Positions 1 to 59,544 of a stretch of 64,000 nucleotides of DNA are shown piece after piece. The DNA is from Spirochaetota bacterium. Its GTDB lineage: Bacteria > Spirochaetota > Spirochaetia > Treponematales > UBA12059. The notes under the pieces are model-generated. The model ran no database searches. It was not told where the DNA came from and worked only from the letters and a program-made list of their open reading frames with translations. Positions within the stretch are counted from its first letter, which is position 1. Each line of letters starts with the position of its first letter. The stretch covers positions 41,922-105,921 of the forward strand of contig JAKPPT010000068.1 of assembly GCA_029547205.1 (NCBI GenBank). Direction: 5' to 3'. The translations under genes and the position numbers were made by a program.

Positions 1-678
1 CATCTCAAGCATCATGGTCAGGATACCTGGTACAATGAAGCAATAGCAATACTCACAGAAAAGGGATTTGATGTACATACTGTACTCTCTGAACAGGATA
101 CAACCACTCATGCACAGCATACAGCACACTCGCTGCATAGCCCTCACGAAGGGTGTCCAGGCGCTCGGTCATTTTCATTTAAGGCACAAGGTCTTTCATC
201 TGGATCGATGCAAGAGGGTCGACACACCATTCAAGGTCACCCTGCAGCATCTCACGCACCACAGATAAACGACGGCCAGACGGTAGCTCAAAACCGATAT
301 GGCTCTATGCTTGAACAGTGGCCCATACAGCTCCACCTCATCAACCCGCGGGCACCTTACTTTAAGGGACAGCACATCCTCATAGCTGCAGATTGTACAG
401 CATTTGCGTACGGAGCCTTCCATCCTGCTCTGCTCGCTGGCAAAAAGCTCATCATCGCTTGCCCCAAACTCGATGCAAATAAGGAAATCTATGTTGATAA
501 AATTGCTGCGCTCATCGACGATTCAGAAGTAGCGTCAATTACCGTTGCAATTATGGAAGTACCATGCTGTTCTGGTTTAGTTTCGCTGGTTAAACAAGCA
601 TTAGCTAAAACTGTACGAAAACCAGCTCTAATAACAGTCACAATAGGAATCAATGGTGATCTCATACATTGGACTTAG
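1..678 (+). CDS. Hypothetical protein, C-terminal part. The reading frame is open from the window edge and runs directly upstream of hcp.
   Basis: Frame 1 is uninterrupted from nt 1 to the stop at 678. The ORF track gives M208-678 in the same frame. No family was recognised. Confidence 0.5.
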   Translation, partial: HLKHHGQDTWYNEAIAILTEKGFDVHTVLSEQDTTTHAQHTAHSLHSPHEGCPGARSFSFKAQGLSSGSMQEGRHTIQGHPAASHAPQINDGQTVAQNRYGSMLEQWPIQLHLINPRAPYFKGQHILIAADCTAFAYGAFHPALLAGKKLIIACPKLDANKEIYVDKIAALIDDSEVASITVAIMEVPCCSGLVSLVKQALAKTVRKPALITVTIGINGDLIHWT

Positions 679-691
679 ATTTTGCTTTAAG

Positions 692-707
692 GTGAAATTG
701 TTTTCAC
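692..707. promoter_or_regulatory. Palindrome GTGAAA-N4-TTTCAC; candidate CRP/FNR-family (HcpR-like) operator upstream of hcp.
   Basis: A perfect 6-bp-arm inverted repeat lies 28 bp upstream of the hcp ATG and next to an AT-rich -10-like TAATAA (711-716). Confidence 0.35.
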
Positions 708-734
708 TTTTAATAAACTAATAAGGAGGAACGA

Positions 735-2426
735 ATGTTCTGTTATCAATGTCAAGAAGCAATGCAGGGGAAAGGTTGTGCCCTTGCAAAAGGTGTTTGT
801 GGCAAGCAGGATACAACCGCAGATTTGCAGGATCTTCTCACGCATACACTCAAAGGTATAGGTGCATGGGCAACAGAAGCAAGAAATCTGGGACTTGCCA
901 CGCCTGATGCAGACCGGTTTGTTGTAGAAAGCCTCTTTGCATCAATCACAAATGCAAACTTTGATGATGAGTGGTTCATCAACGCAATTAAGGAAGGGCT
1001 TGCTATTCGAACCAAACTGCGTGATGTAGTGCGAAGCAAGCGCGGAAGCAGAGAAGATGTTTCGTGTGCTGAAACTGGCTCCCAGACACCACGAGGAGGA
1101 GAAAAACCCATACTCTGCACCGATGCAGCACTCTGGAGTGCTGTCCCGCAAGACTTCGCAAGCAAGGCAAAAACAATTGGATTTCTCGCAGTTCAAAATG
1201 AAGATATTCGCTCGCTCATTGCTCTGTTAATCTTTGGGCTTCGCGGCATGGCAGCATATACTCACCACGCTATGGTACTTGGCTATACCGATGATACAAT
1301 CTTCGCATTTATGCATAAAGCGCTAGCAGCAACAACCGATCCCGCTATCACCGTAGATCAGCTTACAGCACTTGTTCTGGAATGCGGCACGATGGGTGTT
1401 ACTGCAATGGCTTTGCTTGACAAAGCAAACACCAGCACCTATGGTGAACCAGAAATAACAACTGTTGATATAGGTGTACGCAACAATCCTGGCATACTCA
1501 TTTCAGGCCACGATCTAAAAGATCTTGAAATGCTCCTAGAGCAGACAAAAGATCTTGGGATTGATATCTATACGCACAGCGAGATGCTGCCGGCCCACTA
1601 CTATCCTGCATTCAAGAAATATTCACACTTTGCAGGCAATTACGGCAATGCTTGGTGGAAACAGCGCGAAGAGTTTGAAAAGTTCAATGGACCTATTCTC
1701 ATGACAACAAACTGTCTTGTTCCTCCTGCCGATTCCTATAAAGATAGAGTGTATACAACCGGTATCGTGAGCTATCCAGGACTCAAACACATTGATGCCA
1801 ATACTAATGGTTATAAAGATTTTACACCTATTATTGAAGCAGCAAAACGATGTTTACCCCCGACACAGCTTGAAACGGGCAGCATTACTGGAGGCTTCGC
1901 TCACGGCCAGGTAATGAAACTAGCTGATAAAATAGTTGATGCTATAAAGTCTGGCAAAATCAAAAAGTTTGTTGTTATGGCCGGGTGTGACGGCAGAATG
2001 GCAAGCAGAAAATACTACGAAGAATTTGCACTCGCACTTCCAAAAGACACCGTAATACTAACTGCTGGATGTGCAAAGTACCGCTACAACAAACTCAACC
2101 TGGGGGATATCGATGGCATTCCTCGTGTACTCGATGCAGGTCAATGCAACGATTCATACTCGCTTGCTGTAACAGCACTCAAGCTTAAGGAAGTATTTGC
2201 ACTAGCCGATGTCAACGACCTCCCGCTTGTATTCAATATTGCCTGGTATGAGCAGAAAGCTGTCCTTGTACTCCTGGCACTCCTTGCGCTTGGGTTTAAA
2301 AACATTCATATCGGACCTACACTACCTGCATTCCTCTCCCCTGCTATCGCCAATGTACTTATAAAAACTTTCGGACTTGGCACGATTAGCAATGTACAAA
2401 ATGATATTACTCAGATGATTGGTTAA
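735..2426 (+). CDS. hcp: Hydroxylamine reductase / hybrid-cluster protein
   Basis: N-terminus MFCYQCQE...GKGCA is the Hcp cysteine motif. Length is 563 aa. RBS AAGGAGG lies 6 nt upstream. Confidence 0.95.
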
Positions 2427-2461
2427 TTGCTATTTACTGTAAGTACTATTTACTAATTAAC

Positions 2462-2494
2462 CTGGCTGCGGTGCTAATTCGCAGCCAGATTTTC
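2462..2494 (+). terminator. Rho-independent terminator after hcp
   Basis: 9-bp GC-rich stem CTGGCTGCG/CGCAGCCAG, 9-nt loop, followed by ATTTTC. Confidence 0.6.
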
Positions 2495-2569
2495 ATCTGC
2501 TATACAGTTGCTCTTGAATCTTTGATGTGAAAATAACTGAAAAATAGCTTTCTCAGTTTTAATTGGCAC

Positions 2570-3340
2570 CTATTTCATTTCTCCAATATCACTGATACAA
2601 CAGTCTTCCCATTTGGAACCTGGATACACGCTGACAATTTGAATTGCAACAAACCACTGCACAGTTAAGTCTTGAGCATTCATACCAGACACCTGTGTTT
2701 TTGGGACATTTGCTGGAGCTACAGGCAATGGAAGTTCCTGCCAGCCCATAGCATCCTTTAACTCAGTTTCTCTGACAGCATATGTTTTAACATTAATAAA
2801 AAAATCAAATGCCTCACCTAAATTTTTTCGTTCTGCTGCTAAAAGCCAGACTTTGATTTTTTTTGGTCTGGCATTTTTATTATAAAGATCCGCGTTTTTT
2901 TGGAAACCATTGCGTATGCCAATATTCTTTAATCCTGGTATTGGTGCTATGACAACTTCTCCTATACCTGTCCCTTTAACGCCTTCCACCCAGCATGTCT
3001 CTGGATTATTATCCCTGAGGCTTTGCGCAGAATACATGCTTGCCCAGTTTGCCAGCGCCCAGGCATATTCATACTCCGCTTGCATGTCAGCGTCTTCATC
3101 TCCAGTTGGTTCAGGCTTTACAGGAGGCTTTCCTTCCGCTTTCAAAAACGTTGATGACCACGCATCATTGTATTTACCGCCTCCATCGCAAAGCTCCGGT
3201 ATAACATAGCCAATTTTGATATTTCGCAAATCAGGATTTCCGTATGTTTTTGGCGGTTCAACTGTAGTAAATTGTCCATACAAAACAACTGCTATGCTGG
3301 TAAAAACTAATACCAATACAAGCAAACTTAATTTTTTCAT
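2570..3340 (-). CDS. Secreted hypothetical protein (signal peptide MKKLSLLVLVLVF...)
   Basis: 256-aa ORF starting at the internal Met, with a GAGGAGG RBS 5 nt upstream. The N-terminus is hydrophobic. No family recognised. Confidence 0.75.
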   Translation of the reverse strand: MKKLSLLVLVLVFTSIAVVLYGQFTTVEPPKTYGNPDLRNIKIGYVIPELCDGGGKYNDAWSSTFLKAEGKPPVKPEPTGDEDADMQAEYEYAWALANWASMYSAQSLRDNNPETCWVEGVKGTGIGEVVIAPIPGLKNIGIRNGFQKNADLYNKNARPKKIKVWLLAAERKNLGEAFDFFINVKTYAVRETELKDAMGWQELPLPVAPANVPKTQVSGMNAQDLTVQWFVAIQIVSVYPGSKWEDCCISDIGEMK

Positions 3341-5522: not shown

Positions 5523-7091
5523 ATGAGAATCAAACTGCATCTTCCTAAAGACAGAATCGATTATGCCCGCCAGCTTGCTAAACAGATTGCTGCTCCTGTA
5601 GGGGCATTTATCGATGCTCACAGTTCAGTGACGGTTGAACGCGCTACGCTCCGACTGGCAGGAGCTGATGGTGCTAATGCCGATGGTGTACCCGTCCCCA
5701 ACCTCGTTGTGGATCAGGTTAAAGCTGCAGATCCAGCACTGCTCGAAGACGGTGTTATTATTCGATATATCAATGCACTCATTAAAACCGGTCTTTCTAC
5801 TCAGGAACTCAATAAAAAAATTGCAGAAGGTTTCAATGTTATGAGCCTTCCGTTAGGCGACCGCTCAGCAATTGAAGCAAAATGCAATGAACTAGTAGCA
5901 CAGGGTCTGGGGAAAATAAAAGACAACCGTGCATATCGAGACAAAAAGCTTGAAGAGTTTCATGACCGCAATAACAAACCACTTCTCTATCTTATCGTTG
6001 CTACTGGTAATATCTATGAAGATGTCAAACAGGCAAAGGCTGCAGCAAAACAGGGTGCTGATGTTATAGCTGTAATCCGCACAACCGCGCAAAGCTTGCT
6101 CGATTATGTTCCGTACGGAGCAACTACAGAAGGATTTGGCGGAACCTACGCAACGCAGGAAAACTTCCGAATCATGCGCGCTGCACTCGACGAGGTAACC
6201 GAGCAGGAAAAACGGTATATCATGCTCACCAACTATGCATCGGGTCTCTGTATGCCGGAAATTGCTGCAATGGGCGCTCTTGAACGGCTAGACATGATGC
6301 TCAATGACTCAATGTACGGCATCCTCTTCCGCGACATCAACATGTACCGTACTTTTGTTGACCAGAAGTTCAGCCGCATGATCAATGCATATGCTGGTAT
6401 CATTATTAATACCGGAGAGGACAACTACCTTACTACAAGCGATGCGTATGAAAAAGCATATACCGTACTGGCAAGCCAACTCTTGAATGAGCAGTTTGGA
6501 TTTATGGCAGGGCTTCCTGCGCGTCTTCTCGGATTAGGTCACGCTTTTGAAATGGATCCTTCCATTAAAAATGGATTCCTCTATGAGCTTGCCCAGGCTC
6601 AGATGGCGCGCGAAATTTTCCCAGAGCATCCGCTCAAGTACATGCCACCCACAAAGTTCATGTCAGGAGACATTTTCAAAGGCTTAGTCATGGACAGCAT
6701 GTTTAATTTTGTTTCTAAAGCTACGAATCAGGGTATTCATCTCCTTGGCATGCTCACCGAAGCTATTCACACACCATTTATGATGGACCGGTACATTGCC
6801 GTCGATAATGCAAAATACATTATGAACAATATTGAAGATTTTTATGACGATATAGAGTTTAGAAAAGATGGTATTATTGTACGCCGTGCGCATGAGGTGC
6901 TCGATAAGACAATAAAATTCCTTGAGGAAGTTCAGGCAATTGGTTTGTTTGATGCCATCGAACGCGGACTTTTTGCTGATGTAAAGCGTCCAAAGGATGG
7001 CGGAAAAGGATTTGAAGGGCTCATTAAGAAGGGGCCACAGTATTTTAATCCATTTGAAAAGCAGCTCAAACAAGAGCTCAACATAAAATAA
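5523..7091 (+). CDS. kamD: D-lysine/beta-lysine 5,6-aminomutase alpha subunit
   Basis: 522 aa. The N-terminal pattern ...SSVTVERATLRLAGADG...VPVPNLVVD matches the KamD family. A B12-binding partner is encoded immediately downstream. Confidence 0.85.
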   Translation: MRIKLHLPKDRIDYARQLAKQIAAPVGAFIDAHSSVTVERATLRLAGADGANADGVPVPNLVVDQVKAADPALLEDGVIIRYINALIKTGLSTQELNKKIAEGFNVMSLPLGDRSAIEAKCNELVAQGLGKIKDNRAYRDKKLEEFHDRNNKPLLYLIVATGNIYEDVKQAKAAAKQGADVIAVIRTTAQSLLDYVPYGATTEGFGGTYATQENFRIMRAALDEVTEQEKRYIMLTNYASGLCMPEIAAMGALERLDMMLNDSMYGILFRDINMYRTFVDQKFSRMINAYAGIIINTGEDNYLTTSDAYEKAYTVLASQLLNEQFGFMAGLPARLLGLGHAFEMDPSIKNGFLYELAQAQMAREIFPEHPLKYMPPTKFMSGDIFKGLVMDSMFNFVSKATNQGIHLLGMLTEAIHTPFMMDRYIAVDNAKYIMNNIEDFYDDIEFRKDGIIVRRAHEVLDKTIKFLEEVQAIGLFDAIERGLFADVKRPKDGGKGFEGLIKKGPQYFNPFEKQLKQELNIK

Positions 7092-7901: not shown

Positions 7902-7975
7902 GGGGGCGTAGCGAAGCTGGTTATCGCGCTGGCCTGTCAAGCCGGAGATCGCGGGTTCAAGCCCCGTCGCTCCCG
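7902..7975 (+). tRNA. tRNA-Asp (anticodon GTC)
   Basis: Cloverleaf folded by hand: acceptor GGGGGCG/CGCTCCC, D-stem GCGA/TCGC, anticodon loop CTGTCAA, T-loop TTCAAGC; 74 nt. Confidence 0.85.
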
Positions 7976-8055: not shown

Positions 8056-8128
8056 CGGGTTGTAGCGCAGGGGCTAGCGCGCTTGGTTCGGGACCAAGAG
8101 GTCGTGGGTTCAATTCCCACCAGCCCGA
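8056..8128 (+). tRNA. tRNA-Pro (anticodon CGG)
   Basis: Acceptor CGGGTTG/CAGCCCG, D-stem GCGC/GCGC, anticodon stem CTTGG/CCAAG with loop TTCGGGA, T-loop TTCAATT; 73 nt. Confidence 0.85.
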
Positions 8129-24682: not shown

Positions 24683-26059
24683 ATGCAGTCAAACAGAACG
24701 GTGCTTACCCAGGAGCAGCGGCAAACTCTAAGCCATCAAATGCTTCAATCGATACGCATTATGGCTATGCCCATCCAGGAACTCAAAGAAACCATAAATG
24801 CTGAATTAGAAAAAAACCCTGCACTTGAGGTAATTTATGATCCATCAGTAGTCTCTCTTGACAGTATTAGAACCAATCCTGAAATTGCAGGAACAACCAG
24901 TACACAGCAAACAGAGACTAATACAAATTATGAAAAACATACTAAACCTAAACAATCACATCAAGAATTATTTGAAAAAATTCTTAGCAACGAAGAAACA
25001 CTCCAGGAGCATTTACTAGAACAGCTTCGTATCCAGCCTGTTTCTGAAAGTATTTTAAAAGCTGGTGAGCTCTTAATTCAGAATCTCGATGATAAAGGCT
25101 TTCATATTGAGGATCCATTCGTTGTTTGTAAAGATTTTCCACAGGAAGATGTACATACTGCTATCGATCTTATTCAACATTTGGAGCCTATTGGAACCTG
25201 TACCAGGAATTTTCAAGAGTCCCTCATTGTTCAAGCAAAATTAGATCCGGCTGCTCCTCCGTATGCGCAAGTTATTCTAGAGCGATACTTTGATCTTCTT
25301 GAACACAATAAGACTAAAGAGATCCAAAAACTTCTTAAAATTGATCAAGAAGAGCTTGAGCATATACTAACCTACATTAAAACCCTTAACCCTTTCCCGG
25401 GAAGGCAGTATGCACCCAATAATGTTCGATACATTACACCCGATGTGATTGTTCGTCGCGAAAATGGTGATTTTATTATTACTATTAATGAAGAAGAATT
25501 TCCTGTACTCAGTATCAATCCATATTTTAACACACTGCTTGAAAAACAGTACGACAGGGCTACAACACTATTTGTAAAAGAAAATGTTAGAAAAGCACAG
25601 GAATTTATTCAGAGTATTCAGCAACGAAATAAAACTTTACTGCGGGTAGTTCGTGCACTAATTGATTTTCAGCGCGCCTTTTTTATTAAGGGACCGCGCC
25701 ATCTTGCACCGCTCACATTAAAAGATATTGCGCAGCACCTGGAACTACATGAATCAACAATTTCGCGTCTCGTGAATGGAAAATTTATTCAAACTGACTA
25801 TGGCATATTCGAACTGCGATACTTTTTTTCAAACAGCATTTCCGGAGCTGGCAGTACAGGATCACGCTACGCTCAAGGTGCTGTTAAAGAAATAATTAAA
25901 GAAATCATTCAAAACGAACCTGATGCGCTTTCTGATCAAGCAATAGCTGAAAAGCTTGCTTTACGTGGCATACAAATAGCTCGACGTACTGTGGCAAAGT
26001 ACCGTAAAATGCTTCAGCTCGATTCATCTTTTGAACGCAAAGGGAGAAAGAAAAATTGA
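24683..26059 (+). CDS. rpoN: RNA polymerase sigma-54 factor
   Basis: Gln/Leu-rich N-terminal region I and the C-terminal RpoN box ARRTVAKYR. Confidence 0.9.
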   Translation: MQSNRTVLTQEQRQTLSHQMLQSIRIMAMPIQELKETINAELEKNPALEVIYDPSVVSLDSIRTNPEIAGTTSTQQTETNTNYEKHTKPKQSHQELFEKILSNEETLQEHLLEQLRIQPVSESILKAGELLIQNLDDKGFHIEDPFVVCKDFPQEDVHTAIDLIQHLEPIGTCTRNFQESLIVQAKLDPAAPPYAQVILERYFDLLEHNKTKEIQKLLKIDQEELEHILTYIKTLNPFPGRQYAPNNVRYITPDVIVRRENGDFIITINEEEFPVLSINPYFNTLLEKQYDRATTLFVKENVRKAQEFIQSIQQRNKTLLRVVRALIDFQRAFFIKGPRHLAPLTLKDIAQHLELHESTISRLVNGKFIQTDYGIFELRYFFSNSISGAGSTGSRYAQGAVKEIIKEIIQNEPDALSDQAIAEKLALRGIQIARRTVAKYRKMLQLDSSFERKGRKKN

Positions 26060-37965: not shown

Positions 37966-40900
37966 ATGAATAACACAGAAAAACTACAGAACATATTAAT
38001 TGCAGAAGGTGCCACAGGGACAGTCCTTGAAAAACTGCTCATCGAACAGCTGTTTAAGGACAACAGGGCTGCTGTGCACTCATCCATACGGAATAAAGAA
38101 TATTCCTTAAGTGCATACGAGCTCTTAACGGCTCCCCTCGAACACTCGGACATTATCCGCGAGCTTCACAAGCGCTACATCGCTGCAGGCGCTGATATTA
38201 TTAAAACTGCTACATTCAGCGCAAATCTTATTGATATTGATAAAATCAACTCTCATGCACGCAGTTCAGAAAAAATTGAAACATTCTGCTATGACCTCAA
38301 CCGTCGTGCAGCTGAATTGAGTTCATCATGCGCTCAATCGTTTGTTTCAACACCATATGATCACTCACTGTCTACTAAAATAATTCGTACTGCGGGTTCG
38401 ATTGGACCAGGGACAGTCCTCCCCGCTTTAAGCCAGACAGATCCAAATGAAATTTATCGTGCTTACAAACCACAGGTATACGGACTTATAGAAGGTGGTA
38501 TCGATATCCTGCTTATAGAAACGATGCAAGATATTCTCCATGCTAAAACGATCCTCGCGCTTGTCAGTGAAGCACAGATTATATGCAATAAATCTATTGC
38601 AATTATAGTAAGCGCAACACTCAGTTCTAATGGAACACTTCTCTGCGGTACTGAACTCGATGCATTTGCGGAAATCATGGCACCCTATGAGCCGATGGCA
38701 ATCGGTCTTAATTGTTCGGGTGGTCCACTAGAATTGGAACCGCTTATGAAAAAGCTCTCTCGCTATACGGACATTCCCCTCTCGATTATGCCAAATGCTG
38801 GATTACCCATCATACAGAATGGAAAAACTGTGTGGCCTATGGATCCTGAAACATGGGCTCGCCGTATGTTCACAATAATTTATAACACAGAGATAACTAT
38901 AGCAGGAGGTTGCTGCGGAACCACACCAGAACATATAGCTGCACTCACACAATTGATTAACAAAAATAAACAACAAGCAATAAGCAACGCTAAACAAAAC
39001 CATCCAGAGGTACATCAGGAAACTTATCAATCCAGTCCCAAGCTTGCGTCATTATATATCGTTCAAAAAGCGGATCAGAAACCGCTTATCATTGATGAAC
39101 GCGCAAATACACAGGGAAGCAAAAATTTTAAGGAATGCATCCTCCAGAAAGATTTAGTATCTGCATGCAACTATTTATTAACTCTTTCGGAAGATGAATC
39201 CAATGCAATAGATATAGCCATATCGCTTCCGGGAAAGAATGAGATTGAACTTTATAAAAATATAATTAAACAGGTAAGCTCAAAAATAAAACAGGCCATT
39301 GTAATTGATAGCATGTCGGAGAATGTCTTTACACATACACTACCACTGCTGCCAGGCAAAGCATTAATCAACTCCATTAACCTCGAAGATGAAGCAAGAA
39401 CCAAACGACTTCTTGCGTTAGCTAAAAAACATGGAGCTGGCGTTGTACTCCTCACAATGGATAAAAAAGGACCTGCTAAAACAGCACACGAAAAAATTGT
39501 GATAGCGGAACAGCTCTATGAACTTGCGAGATTAGCAGGCTTGCGAGAGAACGATATACTGTTTGACACCTGTACCTTTCCAATAATTTCAGCTGGACCT
39601 GAGTCTGCACAGGCAACGCTCGATGCAATTAGAACACTAAAAGAGCGCCATCCCAACTGTGGATATCTTCTCGGTGCTGGCAATGTTTCCTATGGACTTG
39701 CCCGCAAGCTCCGTGAACCGGTTACCTGCTATTTTTATAAACAAGCAGTCAAAGCTGGATTAACAGCTGCTATTATCAATCCAAAAACAGCCAAACGCAC
39801 GCTCACACGGGATGAAGAATTGCTTTTAGGTAATTTTTTCCATAAACCAGATGTGCAAATCTTATTGGAATACTACGAATCTAAAAACGATGTTAACCGT
39901 TCTGAACAGGCAGGTGAAATCTTAGAAGAACTAAGAGAACCAGCAGAGGGACAGACCTCTCATCTGCTGCCACCATTGCCAGATCTACACACCCTCATAT
40001 TCAGAGGCAAACAGCATAAAATACAGGAACCAGAAATTCAAACTATATTACAAAAATTAACAGCGCAAGAAAAAGTTGAAACGGTACTTACCGCGATGCA
40101 GGAAGTAGCACAGCACTTTGACAGAGGCAAAATTTCACTCCCGGAAGTAATGCTCGCTGCAGAAACTGCCAGAGCTATACTTTCATGTAATACTAACAAT
40201 GAACCCGGAGGATATTTGGCTACCATTGTGCTTGCCACTGTTAAAGGAGATCTCCACGATATTGGTAAAAACATGGTTCGTCTCGTACTTGAGGCGAGCA
40301 ATGTTCATGTAATTGATCTTGGCATTGATGTAGATGCAAAAAAAATATTACAGGAAGCACAACGTAGCAATGCGCATGCAATTGGAATTTCCGGTCTTCT
40401 TACCCGCTCACTTTCAGAAATACAGGAAGTAGCCAATGTGATGAACAAAAATAAAACCTCTGCTGTACTCATTTGTGGCGGGGCAGCAGTTTCAGAAGAG
40501 TATGTTGCACAATACATTGAACCCCTCTACCCCGGAAAAGTTTTTTATGGAAAGGATCCCTTTGAAACTCTTGTGATCCTCAAAAACCTTTCAAACACTA
40601 GAGCAAACATACACAATAAAACCAGACCAACTAGAGCTGTTGCAAAACAGGACTATGCAGGAGCAGCATCAAGCAATGAAAATCAGCAACCATCTAAAGC
40701 TTTATTGCTGACCGAATATGCTCAATCAACAGTGCGAACAGACACCGAAGCTTCTGAAAAACAGCTATGGAGTTCGAGCGGAACAATTCCATTACACGAA
40801 CTCCTCGAAGCACTGAATTTTAAGCGACTCATTCACACACGGCTTAACTACAACAATTTTGCAGAAGGTTTTAAGCAAATACAAAAAGTGCTGGACATGC

Positions 40901-41412
40901 TTCAAAACACCACAATTAAGCTCTCATATAAGAGCTGCATCTGTCCCTGTTACTCAGAATCTGCTCATGCAATTACGTTTAGCTTAGGGGTTAAAACAAT
41001 TGAGCTTCCGGTTGCATCAGCAAATGGCGCAAGCATTGCAGGCTACTTTCAAAATAAAGGAGGCATGTTCTGCTGTACACTTGGCAGGCAATCAGCAGAG
41101 ATCGTTCATAGCATTTCTGCTCATAACATGAGCGATTGTGTGACACTTCATGCTCTCTTTGCAGAACTTACCGAAACTGGAGCAGAGCTAATTCATACCA
41201 GGATCAAAACTGAAGCTCATGCACAGGGCGGGAAACGCTACTCATTCGGTTTCCCCGGAGCACCAGGTGTTGAATATAACAGCGCACTCCTGGAGTTTCT
41301 TTCTGCGGATACCATAGGGCTTTCTGTCATGTCATCGGGGGAGCTTATTCCGGAATACAGCATTACAGCAATCGTGAGTTTTGATCCCAATGCTCGCTAT
41401 ATCGATGCATAG
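37966..41412 (+). CDS. metH: Cobalamin-dependent methionine synthase
   Basis: Hcy domain (GLNCSGGP, GGCCGTTPEHI), pterin-binding domain, B12 cap with DxHxxG (GDLHDIGKNMV), and a C-terminal extension; 1148 aa. Confidence 0.9.
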   Translation: MNNTEKLQNILIAEGATGTVLEKLLIEQLFKDNRAAVHSSIRNKEYSLSAYELLTAPLEHSDIIRELHKRYIAAGADIIKTATFSANLIDIDKINSHARSSEKIETFCYDLNRRAAELSSSCAQSFVSTPYDHSLSTKIIRTAGSIGPGTVLPALSQTDPNEIYRAYKPQVYGLIEGGIDILLIETMQDILHAKTILALVSEAQIICNKSIAIIVSATLSSNGTLLCGTELDAFAEIMAPYEPMAIGLNCSGGPLELEPLMKKLSRYTDIPLSIMPNAGLPIIQNGKTVWPMDPETWARRMFTIIYNTEITIAGGCCGTTPEHIAALTQLINKNKQQAISNAKQNHPEVHQETYQSSPKLASLYIVQKADQKPLIIDERANTQGSKNFKECILQKDLVSACNYLLTLSEDESNAIDIAISLPGKNEIELYKNIIKQVSSKIKQAIVIDSMSENVFTHTLPLLPGKALINSINLEDEARTKRLLALAKKHGAGVVLLTMDKKGPAKTAHEKIVIAEQLYELARLAGLRENDILFDTCTFPIISAGPESAQATLDAIRTLKERHPNCGYLLGAGNVSYGLARKLREPVTCYFYKQAVKAGLTAAIINPKTAKRTLTRDEELLLGNFFHKPDVQILLEYYESKNDVNRSEQAGEILEELREPAEGQTSHLLPPLPDLHTLIFRGKQHKIQEPEIQTILQKLTAQEKVETVLTAMQEVAQHFDRGKISLPEVMLAAETARAILSCNTNNEPGGYLATIVLATVKGDLHDIGKNMVRLVLEASNVHVIDLGIDVDAKKILQEAQRSNAHAIGISGLLTRSLSEIQEVANVMNKNKTSAVLICGGAAVSEEYVAQYIEPLYPGKVFYGKDPFETLVILKNLSNTRANIHNKTRPTRAVAKQDYAGAASSNENQQPSKALLLTEYAQSTVRTDTEASEKQLWSSSGTIPLHELLEALNFKRLIHTRLNYNNFAEGFKQIQKVLDMLQNTTIKLSYKSCICPCYSESAHAITFSLGVKTIELPVASANGASIAGYFQNKGGMFCCTLGRQSAEIVHSISAHNMSDCVTLHALFAELTETGAELIHTRIKTEAHAQGGKRYSFGFPGAPGVEYNSALLEFLSADTIGLSVMSSGELIPEYSITAIVSFDPNARYIDA

Positions 41413-53330: not shown

Positions 53331-53639
53331 GTTTTGCCAATAGGTCTTTACAAACACCTTGCACCCTGTTACTGTGAGATCTTTCCACTTCCCGAATGCT
53401 GCGTACAGACACTAACCTGTGGTTGGTGTCAGGAAGCTTGTTAACAAACGCACCACAACAATATTTAGTATGTATATTTATACATCATACAACATATTGT
53501 TTACTCTCGGTAAAAACAATTTTGTAGTAAGTACAAACAACTTTTTCACATTCTTCATGACACCAGCACCATCTTGTTTCTGTACCTTCTTTCATGGTAT
53601 TGTATGAGCATCTCCGAGTTTTTATATCTACATCATACG

Positions 53640-53770
53640 GTCTATGACACGATATAAAAACCGAGGTTGTGAGCAGCACAATCACTCATGTTGTACGTGT
53701 TTCATGCTCGCAGCCGAGGGTTGTTCTGGAAACAGAGCAGCCTCCCGTATTTTGGAAAGGAGGAGTATCA
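53640..53770 (+). promoter_or_regulatory. Candidate molybdenum/tungsten-cofactor (Moco/Tuco-type) riboswitch leader
   Basis: Structured leader upstream of the tupA-moa operon. A 13-bp stem capped by a GAAA tetraloop sits at 53716-53744. CCGAGG and CCUCCCG elements lie next to the RBS GGAAAGGAGG. Confidence 0.35.
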
Positions 53771-54652
53771 ATGAAGTTTCTCAATGTTTTGATAGCGGTA
53801 CTTGGGATTGTAGTGTTTTCACTTTCCGCTTGTAAACAAACACCAGCAATACGACTTGCTACCACAACCAGTCTTGAACAATCAGGTCTTCTTGGAGAAC
53901 TGATTGAAGCATTTACGAAAAAACAGCATATACCGATTCAAGTTATCACCACCGGGAGTGGGGCAGCGCTTGAACTTGGTAAAAATGGTGATGTAGATGT
54001 AATTATTGCTCATGCTCCAGAATTGGAAAAGCAATTTATGGATTCTGGATATGGGCTTGAACGACATTCGTTTCTATACTCACGTTTTGTTGTACTCGGC
54101 CCTCTTGAAGATCCTGCACACATTGCAAACGCTCAAAACCCAGAGGATGTATTCAAGCGTATAGCTCTCTACAATCAAAGAGGTAATACACAAAAAACAT
54201 TTAATAATTTACCACAACAGCATGCTATGTTTGTATCACGAGGGGATAATTCGGGGACAGATGTTTTGGAAAAATCGATCTGGAACAAGATTGGGATAAA
54301 ACCTGATTCATCGTGGTACAAAGAATCGGGTCAGGGAATGAGCGAAACGATACTCCTTGCGAATGCTCTCAGTGCGTATACCATTTCTGATTTGCCTACC
54401 TGGCTTGCTGTATCAGAGAGCGCATGGTTTAAACAAAATTACTCAAATACAGTAACTATACTGTATGACGCTCCCGGGCAACAGGATTTTTCTAACATAT
54501 ATAGTGTCATTGTCATCAAAAACAATAGTGCTCCTCAAAACCAAAATAACGCAAAATTATTTGCTGATTTTCTTCTCACTGAGGAGTCTCAATCTATTAT
54601 CAATAATTTTTCGATACAAGGAATACGCTGCTATAACAGCATACAACCTTAA
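53771..54652 (+). CDS. tupA: Tungstate/molybdate-binding periplasmic lipoprotein (TupA/WtpA-type)
   Basis: Lipobox LSAC; RLATTTSLEQSGLL...GDVDVIIAHAPE matches TupA. Confidence 0.75.
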   Translation: MKFLNVLIAVLGIVVFSLSACKQTPAIRLATTTSLEQSGLLGELIEAFTKKQHIPIQVITTGSGAALELGKNGDVDVIIAHAPELEKQFMDSGYGLERHSFLYSRFVVLGPLEDPAHIANAQNPEDVFKRIALYNQRGNTQKTFNNLPQQHAMFVSRGDNSGTDVLEKSIWNKIGIKPDSSWYKESGQGMSETILLANALSAYTISDLPTWLAVSESAWFKQNYSNTVTILYDAPGQQDFSNIYSVIVIKNNSAPQNQNNAKLFADFLLTEESQSIINNFSIQGIRCYNSIQP

Positions 54653-54666
54653 TCAATGGGGAAACA

Positions 54667-55329
54667 ATGAACGCTGTATCAATTTTGGAAATTATAGAAA
54701 TATCACTAAGGAGTTTATATTTTGCTTTTACTGCAGCCCTGCTTGCTATGCTCGCAGGGCTTATTCCTGGTATCTGGATTTCAAGAAATGACCAGTATCA
54801 GCACAAAGCAATAAAAAAAATTCTGACATCAATTATCAGCACGCTGACATCTATTCCAACAGTAGTAATTGGAATTTTTGTTTACATGCTGCTTTCAAAA
54901 AAAGGTATTCTTGCAGGGCTTAACTGGCTTTATACATCATCGGGTGTCATTTTTGGAGAATTTTTATTAGCATTACCATTAGTGATTCACCATCTTGTTT
55001 CTGGATTTTCTAAAATTGACTCTACACTATTTGAAACGCTTGCGGTATTTAAAGCTGATGCCCTGAGTACAATTACGATTACAGCAAAAGAAGCCATGCC
55101 TGTTTTGGGCGGTGCTCTCACACTGGCATTTGGAAGAGTTATAGGAGAGGTTGGCCTTGTTATGATGATAGGCGGTAATATCAGGCACGCTACTCGCACA
55201 ATGACAACAGCCATTGCACTTGAGACTTCAAAGGGTAATATCCATGCTGCAACAGTGCTCGGAATAGTTCTTTTACTTATATCGCTTATTGTCAATATTA
55301 CCATCAACTATATTGCGAATTATGAATAA
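54667..55329 (+). CDS. tupB: Tungstate ABC transporter permease
   Basis: 5-6 TM BPD_transp_1 fold. Confidence 0.75.
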   Translation: MNAVSILEIIEISLRSLYFAFTAALLAMLAGLIPGIWISRNDQYQHKAIKKILTSIISTLTSIPTVVIGIFVYMLLSKKGILAGLNWLYTSSGVIFGEFLLALPLVIHHLVSGFSKIDSTLFETLAVFKADALSTITITAKEAMPVLGGALTLAFGRVIGEVGLVMMIGGNIRHATRTMTTAIALETSKGNIHAATVLGIVLLLISLIVNITINYIANYE

Positions 55330-55972
55330 CAAGTTTATTTTTAACAAGCTACATTTCTCATACAAAAATCAGAGTTCATTTTTTTTAACTATTCCATATT
55401 TCGAACTAAACACAAAAGAACCTGTTCGTATTGGTGGAACTAACGCGAGCGGCAAGACCACACTCCTTAAACTGTGTTCAGGACTCTTAAAACCAATCTC
55501 TGGTGAAATTTTATTTAATGAACATACTATCTATCCTATACAAAAACATCCAGAAAGTATTATCTACGTACACCAAAACCCATATATTTTTAAGGGAACT
55601 GTACTATTCAATATTAAAACAGTGCTTGCACTCTATAAAATTTCCGGATTCAAAGCAGATTCAGCAATTGACGAGATTGTATCCTCTTTTAGCATTAAAA
55701 ATATTTTACATAAAAAGCATTATGAACTTACTACTGGAGAAAAACAAAAAGCAGCTCTTGCTCGCGCATTTGTTATAAAACCAAATGTATTACTCCTCGA
55801 TGAACCGAGCACTGGCCTCGATGCTGAAGCAAAAATCATGCTAGCAGCTGCTATAAAACAGAATGCAGCAAATGGTTCTTCAATTATATTTGCATCGCAT
55901 GATTTTGAATTTTGCAACTACATCAAACCATATACTATTACAATTGATGCAGGTACTCTAAAACATCTTTAA
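55322..55972 (+). CDS. tupC: Tungstate ABC transporter ATP-binding protein
   Basis: Walker A GTNASGKTT, ABC signature, Walker B LLLDEPSTGLD. Confidence 0.75.
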   Translation: MNNKFIFNKLHFSYKNQSSFFLTIPYFELNTKEPVRIGGTNASGKTTLLKLCSGLLKPISGEILFNEHTIYPIQKHPESIIYVHQNPYIFKGTVLFNIKTVLALYKISGFKADSAIDEIVSSFSIKNILHKKHYELTTGEKQKAALARAFVIKPNVLLLDEPSTGLDAEAKIMLAAAIKQNAANGSSIIFASHDFEFCNYIKPYTITIDAGTLKHL

Positions 55973-55994: not shown

Positions 55995-57272
55995 ATGGAA
56001 CAATCTATTCATCCCGATCATGCGCTGGAACTCATTCTGGAAGCAGCTAATCTTTTTCCACTAAAAACAGAGACTATCCCAATAGAACAGTCAGCAGGCA
56101 GAGTACTTCCCTATTCAGCATGCTCACTTATTGATCAGCCTCCATTTACAAAGTCTGCCATGGATGGTTATGCATACAACAATGCAACTCCCTGTCTGGA
56201 ATATACACTAGCGGAAGCTGTTAAAGCAGGCAGTCATAGAAGCACTCCGCTTGGTCCCTGTGAAGCTGTACCCATCATGACAGGTGCCCCAATTCCAAAC
56301 GGTGCTAATGCTGTTCAACGTATAGAATGGACTGAACGCTCACGCGACAGAGTTAAGTTTACCAAACAGGAAACAATAAGCAATCTTATAATGCAGGGAG
56401 AAAACTGCAAAGCAGGTGATATTGTATTAACTCCACGCATTATTGCTCCACAGGATATTGGAATACTTGCTGCATCAGGTTACCGCACTGTCACAGTATC
56501 GGTTCCGCCACGTGTTGGCATACTATCAACCGGCGATGAACTCCATGAACCTAATTGTTCTCTTAATCAGCAATCAGAGCTACAGGCTATTATGAATCAG
56601 GCAGCTCGTTATCTTGGTCCCGCTGGTATTTACGATTCAAACGGCTATCAACTTACTGCACATGCTCTTGCATGCGGAGTGTATGCTCACTTCCTGGGCA
56701 TCTGTAAAGACGATCCTCATGAGCTAGCAGCTGCGCTATCAGAGGCCTTACTAAATTATGATATTGTAATACTGTCAGGCGGTGTATCCAAGGGTGATTT
56801 TGATTATATTCCTACTATTGCAAAACAATGTGGAGTAAAGCCTGTATTCCATGAACTTACAATGCGCCCCGGAAAACCAACATTTTTTGGTACTAAAGAC
56901 TGCAAAGCAGTATTTGGTCTTCCAGGAAATCCTGTTTCAACGTTTGTCAATTTTGAAGTATTGGTAAAACCATTGCTCTATAAATCCATGGGCATTTCCT
57001 ATGCTCCTCATATCGTACCAGCACTATTAAATGAAGACATTAGACGGAAAGGTTCAGATCGGGTGGAATTTCTTCCTGGCAATCTGAGCTATAAAAGCAG
57101 TAGTAATGACAACACTTTCTGTTTCCCCGTTATAACGCCCCTCAAATACCATGGTTCTTCTATGATTACAGCATTAGCAGGAGCAAATGTCCTCATTCGG
57201 ATTGAAAAAGGCATAGAGCACCTATCAAAAGGAGACACTATACATGTTAGACTCATTCGGCCGCTCTATTGA
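55995..57272 (+). CDS. moeA: Molybdopterin molybdenum/tungsten transferase
   Basis: ...PPFTKSAMDGYAY... MoeA N-terminal motif; 425 aa. Confidence 0.85.
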   Translation: MEQSIHPDHALELILEAANLFPLKTETIPIEQSAGRVLPYSACSLIDQPPFTKSAMDGYAYNNATPCLEYTLAEAVKAGSHRSTPLGPCEAVPIMTGAPIPNGANAVQRIEWTERSRDRVKFTKQETISNLIMQGENCKAGDIVLTPRIIAPQDIGILAASGYRTVTVSVPPRVGILSTGDELHEPNCSLNQQSELQAIMNQAARYLGPAGIYDSNGYQLTAHALACGVYAHFLGICKDDPHELAAALSEALLNYDIVILSGGVSKGDFDYIPTIAKQCGVKPVFHELTMRPGKPTFFGTKDCKAVFGLPGNPVSTFVNFEVLVKPLLYKSMGISYAPHIVPALLNEDIRRKGSDRVEFLPGNLSYKSSSNDNTFCFPVITPLKYHGSSMITALAGANVLIRIEKGIEHLSKGDTIHVRLIRPLY

Positions 57273-58065
57273 CTACCTGCGGATTTCCGTAACCGACCGC
57301 TGCAACCTCCGCTGTTTTTACTGCATGCCAGAAGAAGGGATAGAGCTTCTTAAACATGAGGCTATTTTAAGTTATGAAGCTATAACACAGGTCGCACAAA
57401 AGGCAGTAAAGCTTGGCTTTACCAAAATAAGACTAACGGGCGGCGAGCCACTTATCCGAAAAAACATTGTTGATCTTGTTGCTATGTTAAGTAATATTAG
57501 TGGCATTAAAACTATCGCTATGACAACAAACGGAACTCTGCTTTCTGATCTTGCTCAGGAACTTAAGAATGCAGGACTCACGAGCATCAATGTATCGCTG
57601 GATACGATGAACAGCACTCTCTACAATATCATTACCCGCGGAGGCTCACTCGATGCAGTTCTAAAAGGAATTTATGCCGCAAAAAATGCAGGATTGGCAA
57701 TTAAAATTAACACAGTTGTATTAGATACTGCATCACCGATATTAGCAGAACAAAAATTTAAGCAAGATATCGAAGCTGTTAGATCATTCGCTGACTCTAT
57801 TGGCGCTCACTTTCAGCGCATTGCTCAATACAATCTTGCTCATATCAAACAGGACTACGGTGAAATAGAACGACCTCCGGCTTGTGCCTCTTGCAACAGA
57901 TTGCGGTTACTTGCAAATGGCGTGTTGAGACCTTGTTTACACTCAAACATAGAAATCCCCATTGATTTTACAAATATTGAAGCAAGCATTAAAAGTGCTA
58001 TTGCTCTCAAGCCTGCGCATGGTCTTTCGTGCACGGGTTTAACAGTTGGGCAAATTGGAGGATAA
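57244..58065 (+). CDS. moaA: GTP 3',8-cyclase (radical SAM)
   Basis: CNLRCFYC cluster motif preceded by DYLRISVTDRCN. Shortened C-terminal region. Confidence 0.85.
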   Translation: MLDSFGRSIDYLRISVTDRCNLRCFYCMPEEGIELLKHEAILSYEAITQVAQKAVKLGFTKIRLTGGEPLIRKNIVDLVAMLSNISGIKTIAMTTNGTLLSDLAQELKNAGLTSINVSLDTMNSTLYNIITRGGSLDAVLKGIYAAKNAGLAIKINTVVLDTASPILAEQKFKQDIEAVRSFADSIGAHFQRIAQYNLAHIKQDYGEIERPPACASCNRLRLLANGVLRPCLHSNIEIPIDFTNIEASIKSAIALKPAHGLSCTGLTVGQIGG

Positions 58066-58068
58066 TGT

Positions 58069-58590
58069 ATGAGTAATAATCAGTTAACGCATGTCGATGA
58101 AAACGGAAAAGCCCGCATGGTCGATGTTTCAGCAAAACCTCGCGTCCGCAGAACAGCGCGGGCTGAAGGATTCATACGATTACATCCAGAAACTATTCAA
58201 GCAATAAAGGCTAACACGATTGCAAAAGGGGATGTCCTTGCCACTGCCCGTATTGCTGGAATTATGGCAGCCAAACAGACTGCATCGCTCATTCCACTCT
58301 GTCACAATATAGAAATCGAATACGTGCAGCTTGATGCTGAAATTATTGAAACTGCTGGCGATTCTGCAAACGGCACCAACTGCTCTGGTAATCCTCTAAA
58401 CAGCAGTAGCCATTGCGGAGTCAAACTTACGAGTTTGTGTACCTGTACCGATAAAACTGGAATTGAAATGGAAGCGCTCACTGCTGTGTCTGTTGCAGCT
58501 CTCACCATTTATGATATGTGCAAGGCAATTGATAAATCAATGGTTATAGAAACTATACGTTTACTCGAAAAAACAAAGGAGGAATTTTAA
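58069..58590 (+). CDS. moaC: Cyclic pyranopterin monophosphate synthase, carrying a 20-aa Ser/Asn/Cys-rich insertion
   Basis: LIPLCH and TGIEMEALTAVSVAALTIYDMCKA motifs. Confidence 0.85.
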   Translation: MSNNQLTHVDENGKARMVDVSAKPRVRRTARAEGFIRLHPETIQAIKANTIAKGDVLATARIAGIMAAKQTASLIPLCHNIEIEYVQLDAEIIETAGDSANGTNCSGNPLNSSSHCGVKLTSLCTCTDKTGIEMEALTAVSVAALTIYDMCKAIDKSMVIETIRLLEKTKEEF

Positions 58591-59108
58591 TGGTATCAAT
58601 AAATGATAACACTGATTCACAAAAAGAAGGTACCTTTAGTATTGTATCGATTAATGTTTCAGAAAAAACCGGAACACGAAAGCGACCGGTACAGACCGCG
58701 GTATTGATACCTGGTAAAGGTATTGACGGGGACGCACATGCCGGCATCCTTGATGACAGACAGGTTTCACTCCTGGCGATTGAAGATATTGAACAGGCTA
58801 ACAATTCTCTCAAAACAAAACCTGGCTGCTGCACGAAAGCGCTCGGACTTGAACAGCTTAATCCTGGTGATTTTGCGGAAAATATTACAACCCGAGGTAT
58901 CAATTTACACAACCTCCCCATAGGGACTGAACTCCGAATAGAGGATGCGATACTCGAAGTTTCACGTATCGGAAAAGAGTGTCACGCAGCCTGTGAAATA
59001 CGGACACTGGTAGGTGATTGCATCATGCCCCGTCGTGGTATTTTTGCACGTGTCATTCAAGGAGGAACCATTACCAATGAAAGTAACTGTTATTACCGTA
59101 TCCGATAG
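58590..59108 (+). CDS. MOSC-domain protein
   Basis: 172 aa; beta-barrel MOSC pattern with conserved Cys (KECHAAC). Confidence 0.6.
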   Translation: MVSINDNTDSQKEGTFSIVSINVSEKTGTRKRPVQTAVLIPGKGIDGDAHAGILDDRQVSLLAIEDIEQANNSLKTKPGCCTKALGLEQLNPGDFAENITTRGINLHNLPIGTELRIEDAILEVSRIGKECHAACEIRTLVGDCIMPRRGIFARVIQGGTITNESNCYYRIR

Positions 59109-59544
59109 AGCTTCTCGTGGCGAATACGAAGACAAATCGGGTCCAGCCATACTCGATGTCATCAAGACTGAAATTCCAGATACAGAACTGGAATATGAAG
59201 TCGTCCCCGATGGCTTTACTTCTGTGCTTTCAGCACTCAAGCGACACATCGATTCCGATTGGATACTCACCACAGGTGGCACAGGTCCTGCACCGCGTGA
59301 TGAAACCCCTGAAGCGACTCGCGCATACATTACAAAATCTATGCCAGGAATTGCTGAGTACCTGCGCATGAAATCGCTTGAGGAAACTCCCTTTGCTGTT
59401 TTCTCCCGGGGAGAAGCAGGCATGAGAGAGAGGCAGTATATTGTCAATCTACCCGGAAGTGAAAAAGGCGCCCGGTTTTGCACAAAACTACTCATTCCAC
59501 TGCTCAAACATGGAATCCATATGGCTGAAGGCGGCGGACATTAG
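59077..59544 (+). CDS. mogA: Molybdopterin adenylyltransferase MogA/MoaB
   Basis: MKVTVITVSDRAS...GGTGPAPRD; RBS AAGGAGGA. Confidence 0.85.
   Translation: MKVTVITVSDRASRGEYEDKSGPAILDVIKTEIPDTELEYEVVPDGFTSVLSALKRHIDSDWILTTGGTGPAPRDETPEATRAYITKSMPGIAEYLRMKSLEETPFAVFSRGEAGMRERQYIVNLPGSEKGARFCTKLLIPLLKHGIHMAEGGGH

Follow-up and report, generated by a model that had tools for sequence, protein, structure and literature searches.

The leader upstream of tupA on the forward strand of the window, i.e. the whole 64-kb stretch of DNA that was analysed, is a genuine riboswitch of the Moco/Tuco family (Rfam RF01055). It is an ordinary, previously uncharacterised member of this family and lies in a 5' leader site, directly upstream of the genes tupA-tupB-tupC-moeA-moaA-moaC-MOSC-mogA, the usual gene context of RF01055. 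Its presence extends the family to a phylum, the Spirochaetota, absent from the list of the founding paper and identifies a regulator for a spirochaete operon of metal uptake and cofactor synthesis. We assign a probability of about 0.9 to the complete reading, namely that this RF01055 RNA acts as a cofactor-dependent translational OFF switch of the uptake and synthesis operon.

An RF01055 aptamer in the tupA leader

A scan of both strands of the window with all 4227 Rfam families returned one riboswitch match only, RF01055 (the Moco/Tuco riboswitch aptamer) at 53600-53778 (+), with 75.8 bits in cmscan against a gathering score of 36 (E-value 1.5e-16). This match covers model positions 1-135 of 135 and is not truncated. 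Energy minimisation of the predicted transcript (53609-53768) gave -58.4 kcal/mol (z = -5.18), and its minimum-free-energy (MFE) and centroid structures are the same five-helix P1-P5 arrangement as that of the Rfam alignment. The order P1-P2-P3-P4-P5 is common to the thermodynamic fold, the Rfam alignment and a de novo RNAalifold consensus, and the aptamer proper, from the 5' strand to the 3' strand of P1, occupies positions 53611-53763 (+) according to cmscan and to both folds.

All helices are on the forward strand. P1 is short, with 5 bp including one G-U pair: its 5' strand (UCUCC, 53611-53615), followed by the J1/2 nucleotides GA (53616-53617), pairs with GGAGG (53759-53763). In the fold of a longer fragment P1 was replaced by other pairings in the MFE structure and retained in the centroid. 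P2 (53618-53661; Rfam alignment and fold) is composed of an 11-bp lower stem, an internal loop UACA / CAC and a 5-bp upper stem. P3 (53665-53715), supported by the same two sources, is a 51-nt hairpin of 11 bp, an internal loop and 4 bp, which folds on its own at -20.2 kcal/mol (z = -3.25). P4 (53718-53743), found by the Rfam alignment, a terminator scan and the fold, has an 11-bp stem (53718-53728 / 53733-53743) with 8 Watson-Crick and 3 G-U pairs, capped by a GAAA tetraloop (53729-53732); this hairpin alone reaches -17.4 kcal/mol (z = -4.8) and none of 200 shuffled sequences folds as well. The mini-helix P5 (CC...GG, 53744-53755; Rfam alignment) lies in the conserved core CCUCCCGUAUUUUGG. 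Finally, the 3' strand of P1 is at the same time the Shine-Dalgarno (SD) sequence of tupA (GGAGGAG, 53759-53765) and constitutes the expression platform, with 7 nt between GGAGG and the ATG at 53771.

We also looked for the conserved core of the family: CuCCGAG at P1/J1-2, AGGG opening P4, GAAA on P4, CCUCCC and GGAAAGGAG. The corresponding nucleotides are all present, as CUCCGAG (53612-53618), GAGGG (53716-53720), GAAA on the P4 loop, CCUCCCG (53741-53747) and GGAAAGGAG (53754-53762). A preliminary description of this DNA had proposed a structured leader upstream of this operon and, within it, a candidate Moco/Tuco-type riboswitch, naming as elements known from Moco riboswitches CCGAGG and CCUCCCG, which flank a GAAA-capped helix and run into the ribosome-binding site (RBS). 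The leader is real, as attested by the RF01055 match, its folding z-score and the Pfam and NCBIfam content of the genes that follow, and the full-length match, at more than its gathering score, supports the riboswitch candidate. These elements are all there: CCGAGG occurs twice (53661-53666 and 53714-53719), CCUCCCG stands at the position given above, and the RBS GGAAAGGAGGAG (53754-53765, +) runs into the tupA ATG. The GAAA-capped helix is present too, with 11 bp at the coordinates of P4 instead of the 13 bp at 53716-53744 first assigned to it. As for the range 53640-53770 given to the element, it lies inside the riboswitch but cuts off its 5' part (the 5' strand of P1 and, from 53618 on, the first half of P2), the element beginning ~30 nt further upstream.

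Conservation and covariation of the structure

Orthologues recovered by exact-protein look-ups provided four more distinct leaders with the same RNA (L001/L088, L004, L006 and L087), whose TupA proteins are, respectively, 90, 62, 58 and 47% identical to that of the window. These leaders match RF01055 with 63-71 bits and have a long P3 in each case. The operon is as in the window in L001, L004 and L088, and the contigs of L006 and L087 end at or just past tupA. A protein identical to the TupA of the window is recorded from Spirochaetales metagenome-assembled genomes (MAGs) and JGI metagenome contigs; two metagenome scans for closer orthologues, one using TupA as query and the other a riboswitch pattern of 26 nt, found none.

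RNAalifold applied de novo to six leaders (five distinct sequences) yielded P1-P5, with 13 of the 50 pairs changed on both sides, a count that, like the others reported here, was made on the same alignments from which the structures were derived or to which they were fitted. In the alignment of this clade, 89.2% of the cells are paired, compared with 39-44% when the 3' partners are slid, and the covariation score is 0.306, compared with at most 0.118 (0 of 500 shuffles reach 0.306). The sequences of P3 differ among the orthologues and the hairpin is the same. The alignment of orthologous tupA leaders, proposed by the preliminary description together with a search using the RF01055 covariance model, showed a structure kept with compensatory changes, and the search itself gave a full-length match far above threshold; neither of the two outcomes that had been named as contrary to a riboswitch, no model match and a hairpin lost from orthologous leaders, was observed.

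A broader comparison included 14 RNAs, namely the five distinct sequences of the clade, six RNAs lacking P3 and, from other spirochaetes, three leaders that have it. It was based on the Rfam cmscan alignments, a MAFFT alignment of the 14 being unusable in P2 and P3. Compensatory changes support the helices P2, the base of P3 and P4. In the lower stem of P2 (P2a), 10 of 11 positions show changes on both sides, and between three and six pair types occur per position in P2a, the upper stem P2b and positions 5-11 of P4. None of the eight P3-bearing RNAs has lost any of the five pairs at the base of P3, where one position reaches six pair types. The CUCC/GGAG core of P1 is invariant or compensated in all 14, and the C-G pairs of P5 are invariant except for one compensated U-A in L023.

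The association between tupA and RF01055 is lineage-specific: among the tupA loci taken from GTDB genomes, the majority of the proteobacterial and other ones lack an RF01055 RNA. A covariance model built from a single sequence, the P3-less RNA of L055, took P3 for P2 and so misaligned the P3-bearing RNAs; it found no extra strong matches in the remaining tupA loci. Near a deltaproteobacterial tupA locus (L030 6153-6214) there is an nhaA-I RNA (RF03057, 47.7 bits), unrelated to the riboswitch of the window.

A degenerate tetraloop receptor

A GNRA tetraloop receptor in P2 is common in the family although not universal, and members without receptor have been reported (PMC2408646). In the window RNA, the internal loop of P2 at the receptor position (53628-53633 / 53647-53652) reads UCUACA/CACGA, which is not the canonical CCUAAG/UAUGG and retains only its C-G pair and the UA. 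The other partner also varies, the P4 tetraloop being AAAA instead of GAAA in L001, L088 and L087, which represent two lineages. The P3-less RNAs compared have receptor loops of the CCUAAG/UAUGG type. These sequences suggest relaxed selection on the tetraloop-receptor contact in the clade of the window, where this tertiary contact may be weak or absent. More speculatively, the long P3 may compensate for the degenerate receptor.

The operon and the start of tupA

The eight genes downstream of the RNA, all on the forward strand, are tightly packed or overlapping. The preliminary description had stated that they join uptake to molybdopterin cofactor synthesis, and Pfam and NCBIfam matches confirm this gene content. 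The first one (53771-54652) encodes a TupA-like substrate-binding lipoprotein of 293 aa (PF12849). Its best NCBIfam match is TupA, which at 156 bits falls short of the 400-bit equivalog cutoff, and its relatives in the PDB are 3LR1 (annotated as tungstate-binding protein) and 5MY5 (ABC transporter substrate-binding protein). The protein has the motifs TTTS and SRGDNSGT, which are invariant in 35 homologues. Compared with solved TupA structures, it carries a 16-residue insertion at residues ~133-150 (LYNQRGNTQKTFNNLP...) and a second short insertion at residues ~215-221. It is followed by a TupB-like ABC permease (54667-55329; PF00528), for which the ABC_perm1 subfamily model of NCBIfam is the best match (152 bits, above cutoff) and TupB scores 119 bits, below the equivalog cutoff, and by a TupC-like ABC ATPase of 216 aa (55322-55972; PF00005), whose start at ATG 55322 was set by comparison with the gene calls of L001 and L088 plus a check of the ATG. 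This TupC is devoid of a C-terminal TOBE domain, which the L055 homologue possesses.

The cofactor genes start with moeA (55995-57272; PF03453, PF00994 and PF03454), whose product inserts metal into molybdopterin, and continue with a compact moaA (57244-58065; TIGR02666 at 242.6 bits). The MoaA protein is short, with 273 aa (265-273 aa in spirochaete relatives) versus 340 aa in the solved S. aureus enzyme: ~50-60 residues are missing after the radical-SAM core. It retains CX3CX2C, CX2CX13C (the C-terminal cluster motif) and the terminal GG. Next come moaC (58069-58590; PF01967, E 1.5e-53), a gene for a MOSC-domain protein (58590-59108; PF03473), which corresponds to the MOSC half of the MoaC/MOSC fusion model NF011069, and a mogA/moaB-type molybdopterin adenylyltransferase gene of 155 codons (59077-59544; PF00994 and NF006932), whose ATG at 59077 is preceded by AAGGAGG.

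Elsewhere, the window contains two tRNA genes (7902-7975 and 8056-8128) and genes for a hybrid-cluster (prismane) protein (735-2426), the alpha subunit of D-lysine 5,6-aminomutase (5523-7091), sigma-54 (24683-26059) and a B12-dependent methionine synthase (37966-41412). This gene content fits an anaerobic fermenter. Among ten large ORFs of the window we found no Mo or W enzyme.

Since a lipoprotein signal peptide begins there, the start of tupA can be fixed at 53771. An upstream start would make the leader protein-coding and its structure incidental: a mechanical ORF (53669-54652) does exist in the window, opening at GTG 53669, and the public calls of two orthologues start inside the RNA (P0002, 326 aa, L001 6001-6981; P0004, 374 aa, L006 3204-4328). 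However, the ATG at 53771 follows a strong SD and begins a signal peptide of the usual lipoprotein kind (MKFLNVLIAVLGIVVFSLSAC, with the lipobox LSAC at its end), the public gene call of the window itself has 293 aa, and the stretch upstream of this ATG varies in length and by compensatory base-pair substitutions, not in the manner of a reading frame. We therefore consider a coding leader extremely improbable; the public calls of the two orthologues run through the RNA.

Putative promoter and proposed mechanism of regulation

Conservation among the leaders points to a promoter just upstream of the aptamer. A putative -35 hexamer, TTGTTT (53574-53579, +), contains a TTG (53574-53576) that, together with the preceding CA.C, is invariant in the five orthologous leaders, and a putative extended -10, TGGTATTGT (53595-53603, +), conforms to TG.TATTGT, which is invariant in the window, L001, L004, L006 and L087. 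The two are 18 nt apart and the spacer varies in sequence. Transcription probably starts at ~53610, at the invariant CAUCUCCGAG. The Rfam match shares its first 4 nt with the extended -10, and the outermost optional pairs of the model, which are non-canonical in the window RNA, are therefore probably not transcribed.

The transcript would thus begin just past the extended -10 and fold into P1-P2-P3-P4-P5. The 3' strand of P1 is the SD of tupA, so that binding of the cofactor should hide the ribosome site. We envisage that plentiful metal-loaded molybdopterin cofactor occupies the aptamer and makes P1 more stable, which would hide GGAGG (53759-53763) and lower the translation of tupA. The expression of tupB, tupC, moeA, moaA, moaC, the MOSC gene and mogA would probably drop too, via translational coupling or polarity. 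When the cofactor is scarce, P1 would open and the uptake and synthesis operon would be expressed, which amounts to negative feedback. In the papers considered here, direct binding of the cofactor in vitro is not reported for RF01055 members, the evidence being genetic (PMC2408646). The arrangement with the SD in P1 is shared by L001/L088, L004, L006 and L087, as well as by L008b, L013, L094, L095 and L097.

A transcriptional mechanism could be imagined instead, in which the P4 hairpin and CCCGUAUUUU form an intrinsic terminator and the operon is controlled by attenuation, and a simple terminator scan indeed flags 53718-53743 plus tail. Nevertheless, the family-wide conserved aptamer core consists of the P4 stem with its GAAA loop and of CCUCCCGUAUUUGG after it, also in members with separate expression platforms; the U-run is short, begins after CCCGUA and is itself the P5 loop; and the scan is expected to yield 0.4 such matches by chance in this 800-nt region. 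Moreover, there is no room for a terminator further on because the ORF starts 8 nt past P1. Attenuation is accordingly very unlikely, if somewhat less so than a coding leader, and we retain translational control. A search for an intrinsic terminator after mogA found none. We also considered a hairpin between the SD and a conserved UUUCUC just past the start codon, and rejected it (z = +0.78); this conserved UUUCUC is explained by codons of the signal peptide.

P3 and the metal that is sensed

P3-bearing RNAs of the family were linked only to Moco/MPT genes and P3-less ones to tungsten metabolism (Regulski et al. 2008, PMC2408646), tupA and tupB being the tungsten markers of that survey; in the same work, the P3-bearing RNA of E. 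coli gave no response to tungstate. A 2024 study of Eubacterium limosum still took the absence of P3 as confirming W dependence, including for the tupABC leader (PMC11725836). By its architecture, the window RNA belongs to the P3-bearing 'Moco' class and not to the P3-less 'Tuco' class (PMC2408646). Its operon contains MPT/Moco synthesis genes and yet its first gene encodes a TupA-family transporter. The hints on the ligand are therefore conflicting: the P3 class points to Moco whereas the family of the transporter and the neighbourhoods of the relatives point to tungsten.

A P3-bearing RF01055 RNA combined with a tupABC-moeA or tupABC-moaA operon recurs in other Spirochaetota, in at least six more lineages (L008b, L012, L013, L094, L095 and L097). 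P3-less members of the family, in turn, lie upstream of tupA in L055, L058, L016 and L086. In L097 (positions 1-3009; Treponemataceae MAG contig JBAYHM010000061.1), a P3-bearing RF01055 RNA (2854-3009) heads tupABC-moeA-moaA, and an AOR-family gene (PF02730/PF01314) and radical SAM/SPASM, ThiS-like and ThiF-like genes lie directly upstream of the RNA. This neighbourhood is typical of tungsten enzymes, despite the 'Moco-architecture' of the RNA. Two more spirochaete tupABC-moeA-moaA operons are headed by RF01055-like leaders below the gathering score, which routine Rfam annotation would miss: one in L096 (2882-2996; 35.5 bits), P3-less and with a 30-nt insertion in the P5 loop, and one in L098 (2885-3009; 31.4 bits), whose P3 is short and whose P4 carries a GGAAGC loop. 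L008 (Treponemataceae MAG contig CAYZZW010000002.1) has two RF01055 RNAs 1.6 kb apart (1013-1135 and 2788-2935), of which the P3-less one precedes a gene for an NAD-type aldehyde dehydrogenase (PF00171, ORF 1109-2767) and the P3-bearing one precedes tupABC-moeA. The P3-less RNA of L008 may be a cofactor-sparing switch: a supply of W/Mo cofactor would allow an AOR-type enzyme to work, and the RNA would then repress the aldehyde dehydrogenase, which does without the cofactor.

Two versions of the same switch have to be weighed. The ligand may be specifically Tuco, or both metal forms, in which case P3 would be no Mo-versus-W determinant in Spirochaetota. This is what one would expect from a first gene of the TupA family, whose product has the conserved TTTS and SRGDNSGT motifs and is related to PDB entries annotated as tungstate-binding, from the recurrence of P3-bearing RNAs before tupABC operons in the six further lineages, from the AOR-family gene cluster adjoining the operon in L097, and from the P3-less, near-threshold leader on the orthologous operon of L096, which implies that P3 can be gained or lost while the operon keeps the same genes. 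Several of these points are weakened by the fact that TupA-family proteins of some species also bind molybdate, that the score of the window TupA is well under the NCBIfam equivalog cutoff and that some AOR-family enzymes use Mo. In addition, the occurrence of a P3-less and a P3-bearing RNA so close to each other in L008 suggests that the two types are not equivalent, and the 2008 survey, which ties P3 only to Moco/MPT genes, and the insensitivity of the E. coli RNA to tungstate (PMC2408646) also count against it. Overall, we place a ligand of this kind, with P3 irrelevant to the choice of metal, just short of even odds.

Alternatively, the switch may be strictly Moco-sensing, as its P3 would indicate, and the TupABC-like system would be the molybdate importer of this organism. 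P3 is in fact present and covarying, the published correlation and the E. coli data tie it to Moco (PMC2408646), every P3-bearing spirochaete example that we found controls a transporter together with the general synthesis genes moeA/moaA, and the P3-less spirochaete RNA of L055 controls a stand-alone transporter. Against this speak the family and motifs of TupA, the AOR-family neighbourhood in L097 and the near-threshold P3-less leader on the same type of operon in L096, and we regard strict Moco sensing as a reasonable possibility of rather less than even probability. For the metal sensed by the window RNA as such, Tuco or both forms stand at roughly even chances, Moco only is somewhat less probable and any other ligand is improbable.

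The widely used rule 'P3 present = Moco, absent = Tuco' does not track gene context in Spirochaetota. We tentatively advance, as a proposal that is more doubtful than either of the two versions weighed above, that the tungsten cofactor, alone or alongside the molybdenum form, is the signal for the P3-bearing RF01055 aptamers of Spirochaetota, that of the window included. If true, the presence or absence of P3 would not be the Mo-versus-W determinant assumed since 2008 and the architecture-based assignment of Moco and Tuco riboswitches would need revision. The spirochaete leaders offer natural variants in which the basis of metal specificity in RF01055 riboswitches can be probed.

Comparison with known systems

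The moaA riboswitch of E. coli (PMC2408646) is an RF01055 RNA with P1-P5 including P3, as the window RNA, and has the same core (CCGAG, AGGG, a GAAA loop on P4, CCUCCC and GGAAAGG). Both RNAs lie upstream of molybdopterin synthesis genes. In the two RNAs the RBS falls within or beside the 3' strand of P1, immediately ahead of the start codon, and an OFF switch is expected; for the E. coli leader, P1 was proposed to enclose the RBS and repression when Moco is made was shown genetically (PMC2408646). With the same tool, the window RNA scores 75.8 bits against RF01055 and the E. coli moaA RNA 103.6 bits. The P3 of the window RNA is longer (51 nt versus ~29 nt) and its P2 receptor is non-canonical, unlike that of E. 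coli. The operon is headed by a TupA-family transporter in the window and by moaA in E. coli, and the host is a spirochaete known from a MAG.

The P3-less 'Tuco' riboswitches found upstream of tupABC or tungstoenzyme genes in Clostridia, such as Eubacterium limosum (PMC11725836) and Syntrophomonas wolfei (PMC2408646), belong to the same family and share the tupABC context with the window. For the tupABC leader of E. limosum, sequestration of the RBS was also proposed (PMC11725836). The P3-less RNAs keep a canonical receptor of the CCUAAG/UAUGG type in the examples compared here, whereas in the window RNA the receptor is degenerate and P3 is long, and this RNA breaks the pairing of P3-less architecture with tupABC context seen in E. 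limosum.

Further counterparts occur in other Spirochaetota. The RNAs of L008b, L012, L013, L094, L095 and L097 have in common with the window RNA the family, the presence of P3, the head of the operon and the SD in the 3' strand of P1. Nonetheless, their P2 and P3 are unrelated in sequence and length to those of the window, and their TupA proteins are only ~40% identical. Several of them keep a more canonical receptor than that of the window, as in L097, where it reads CCUAAA...CAUGG.
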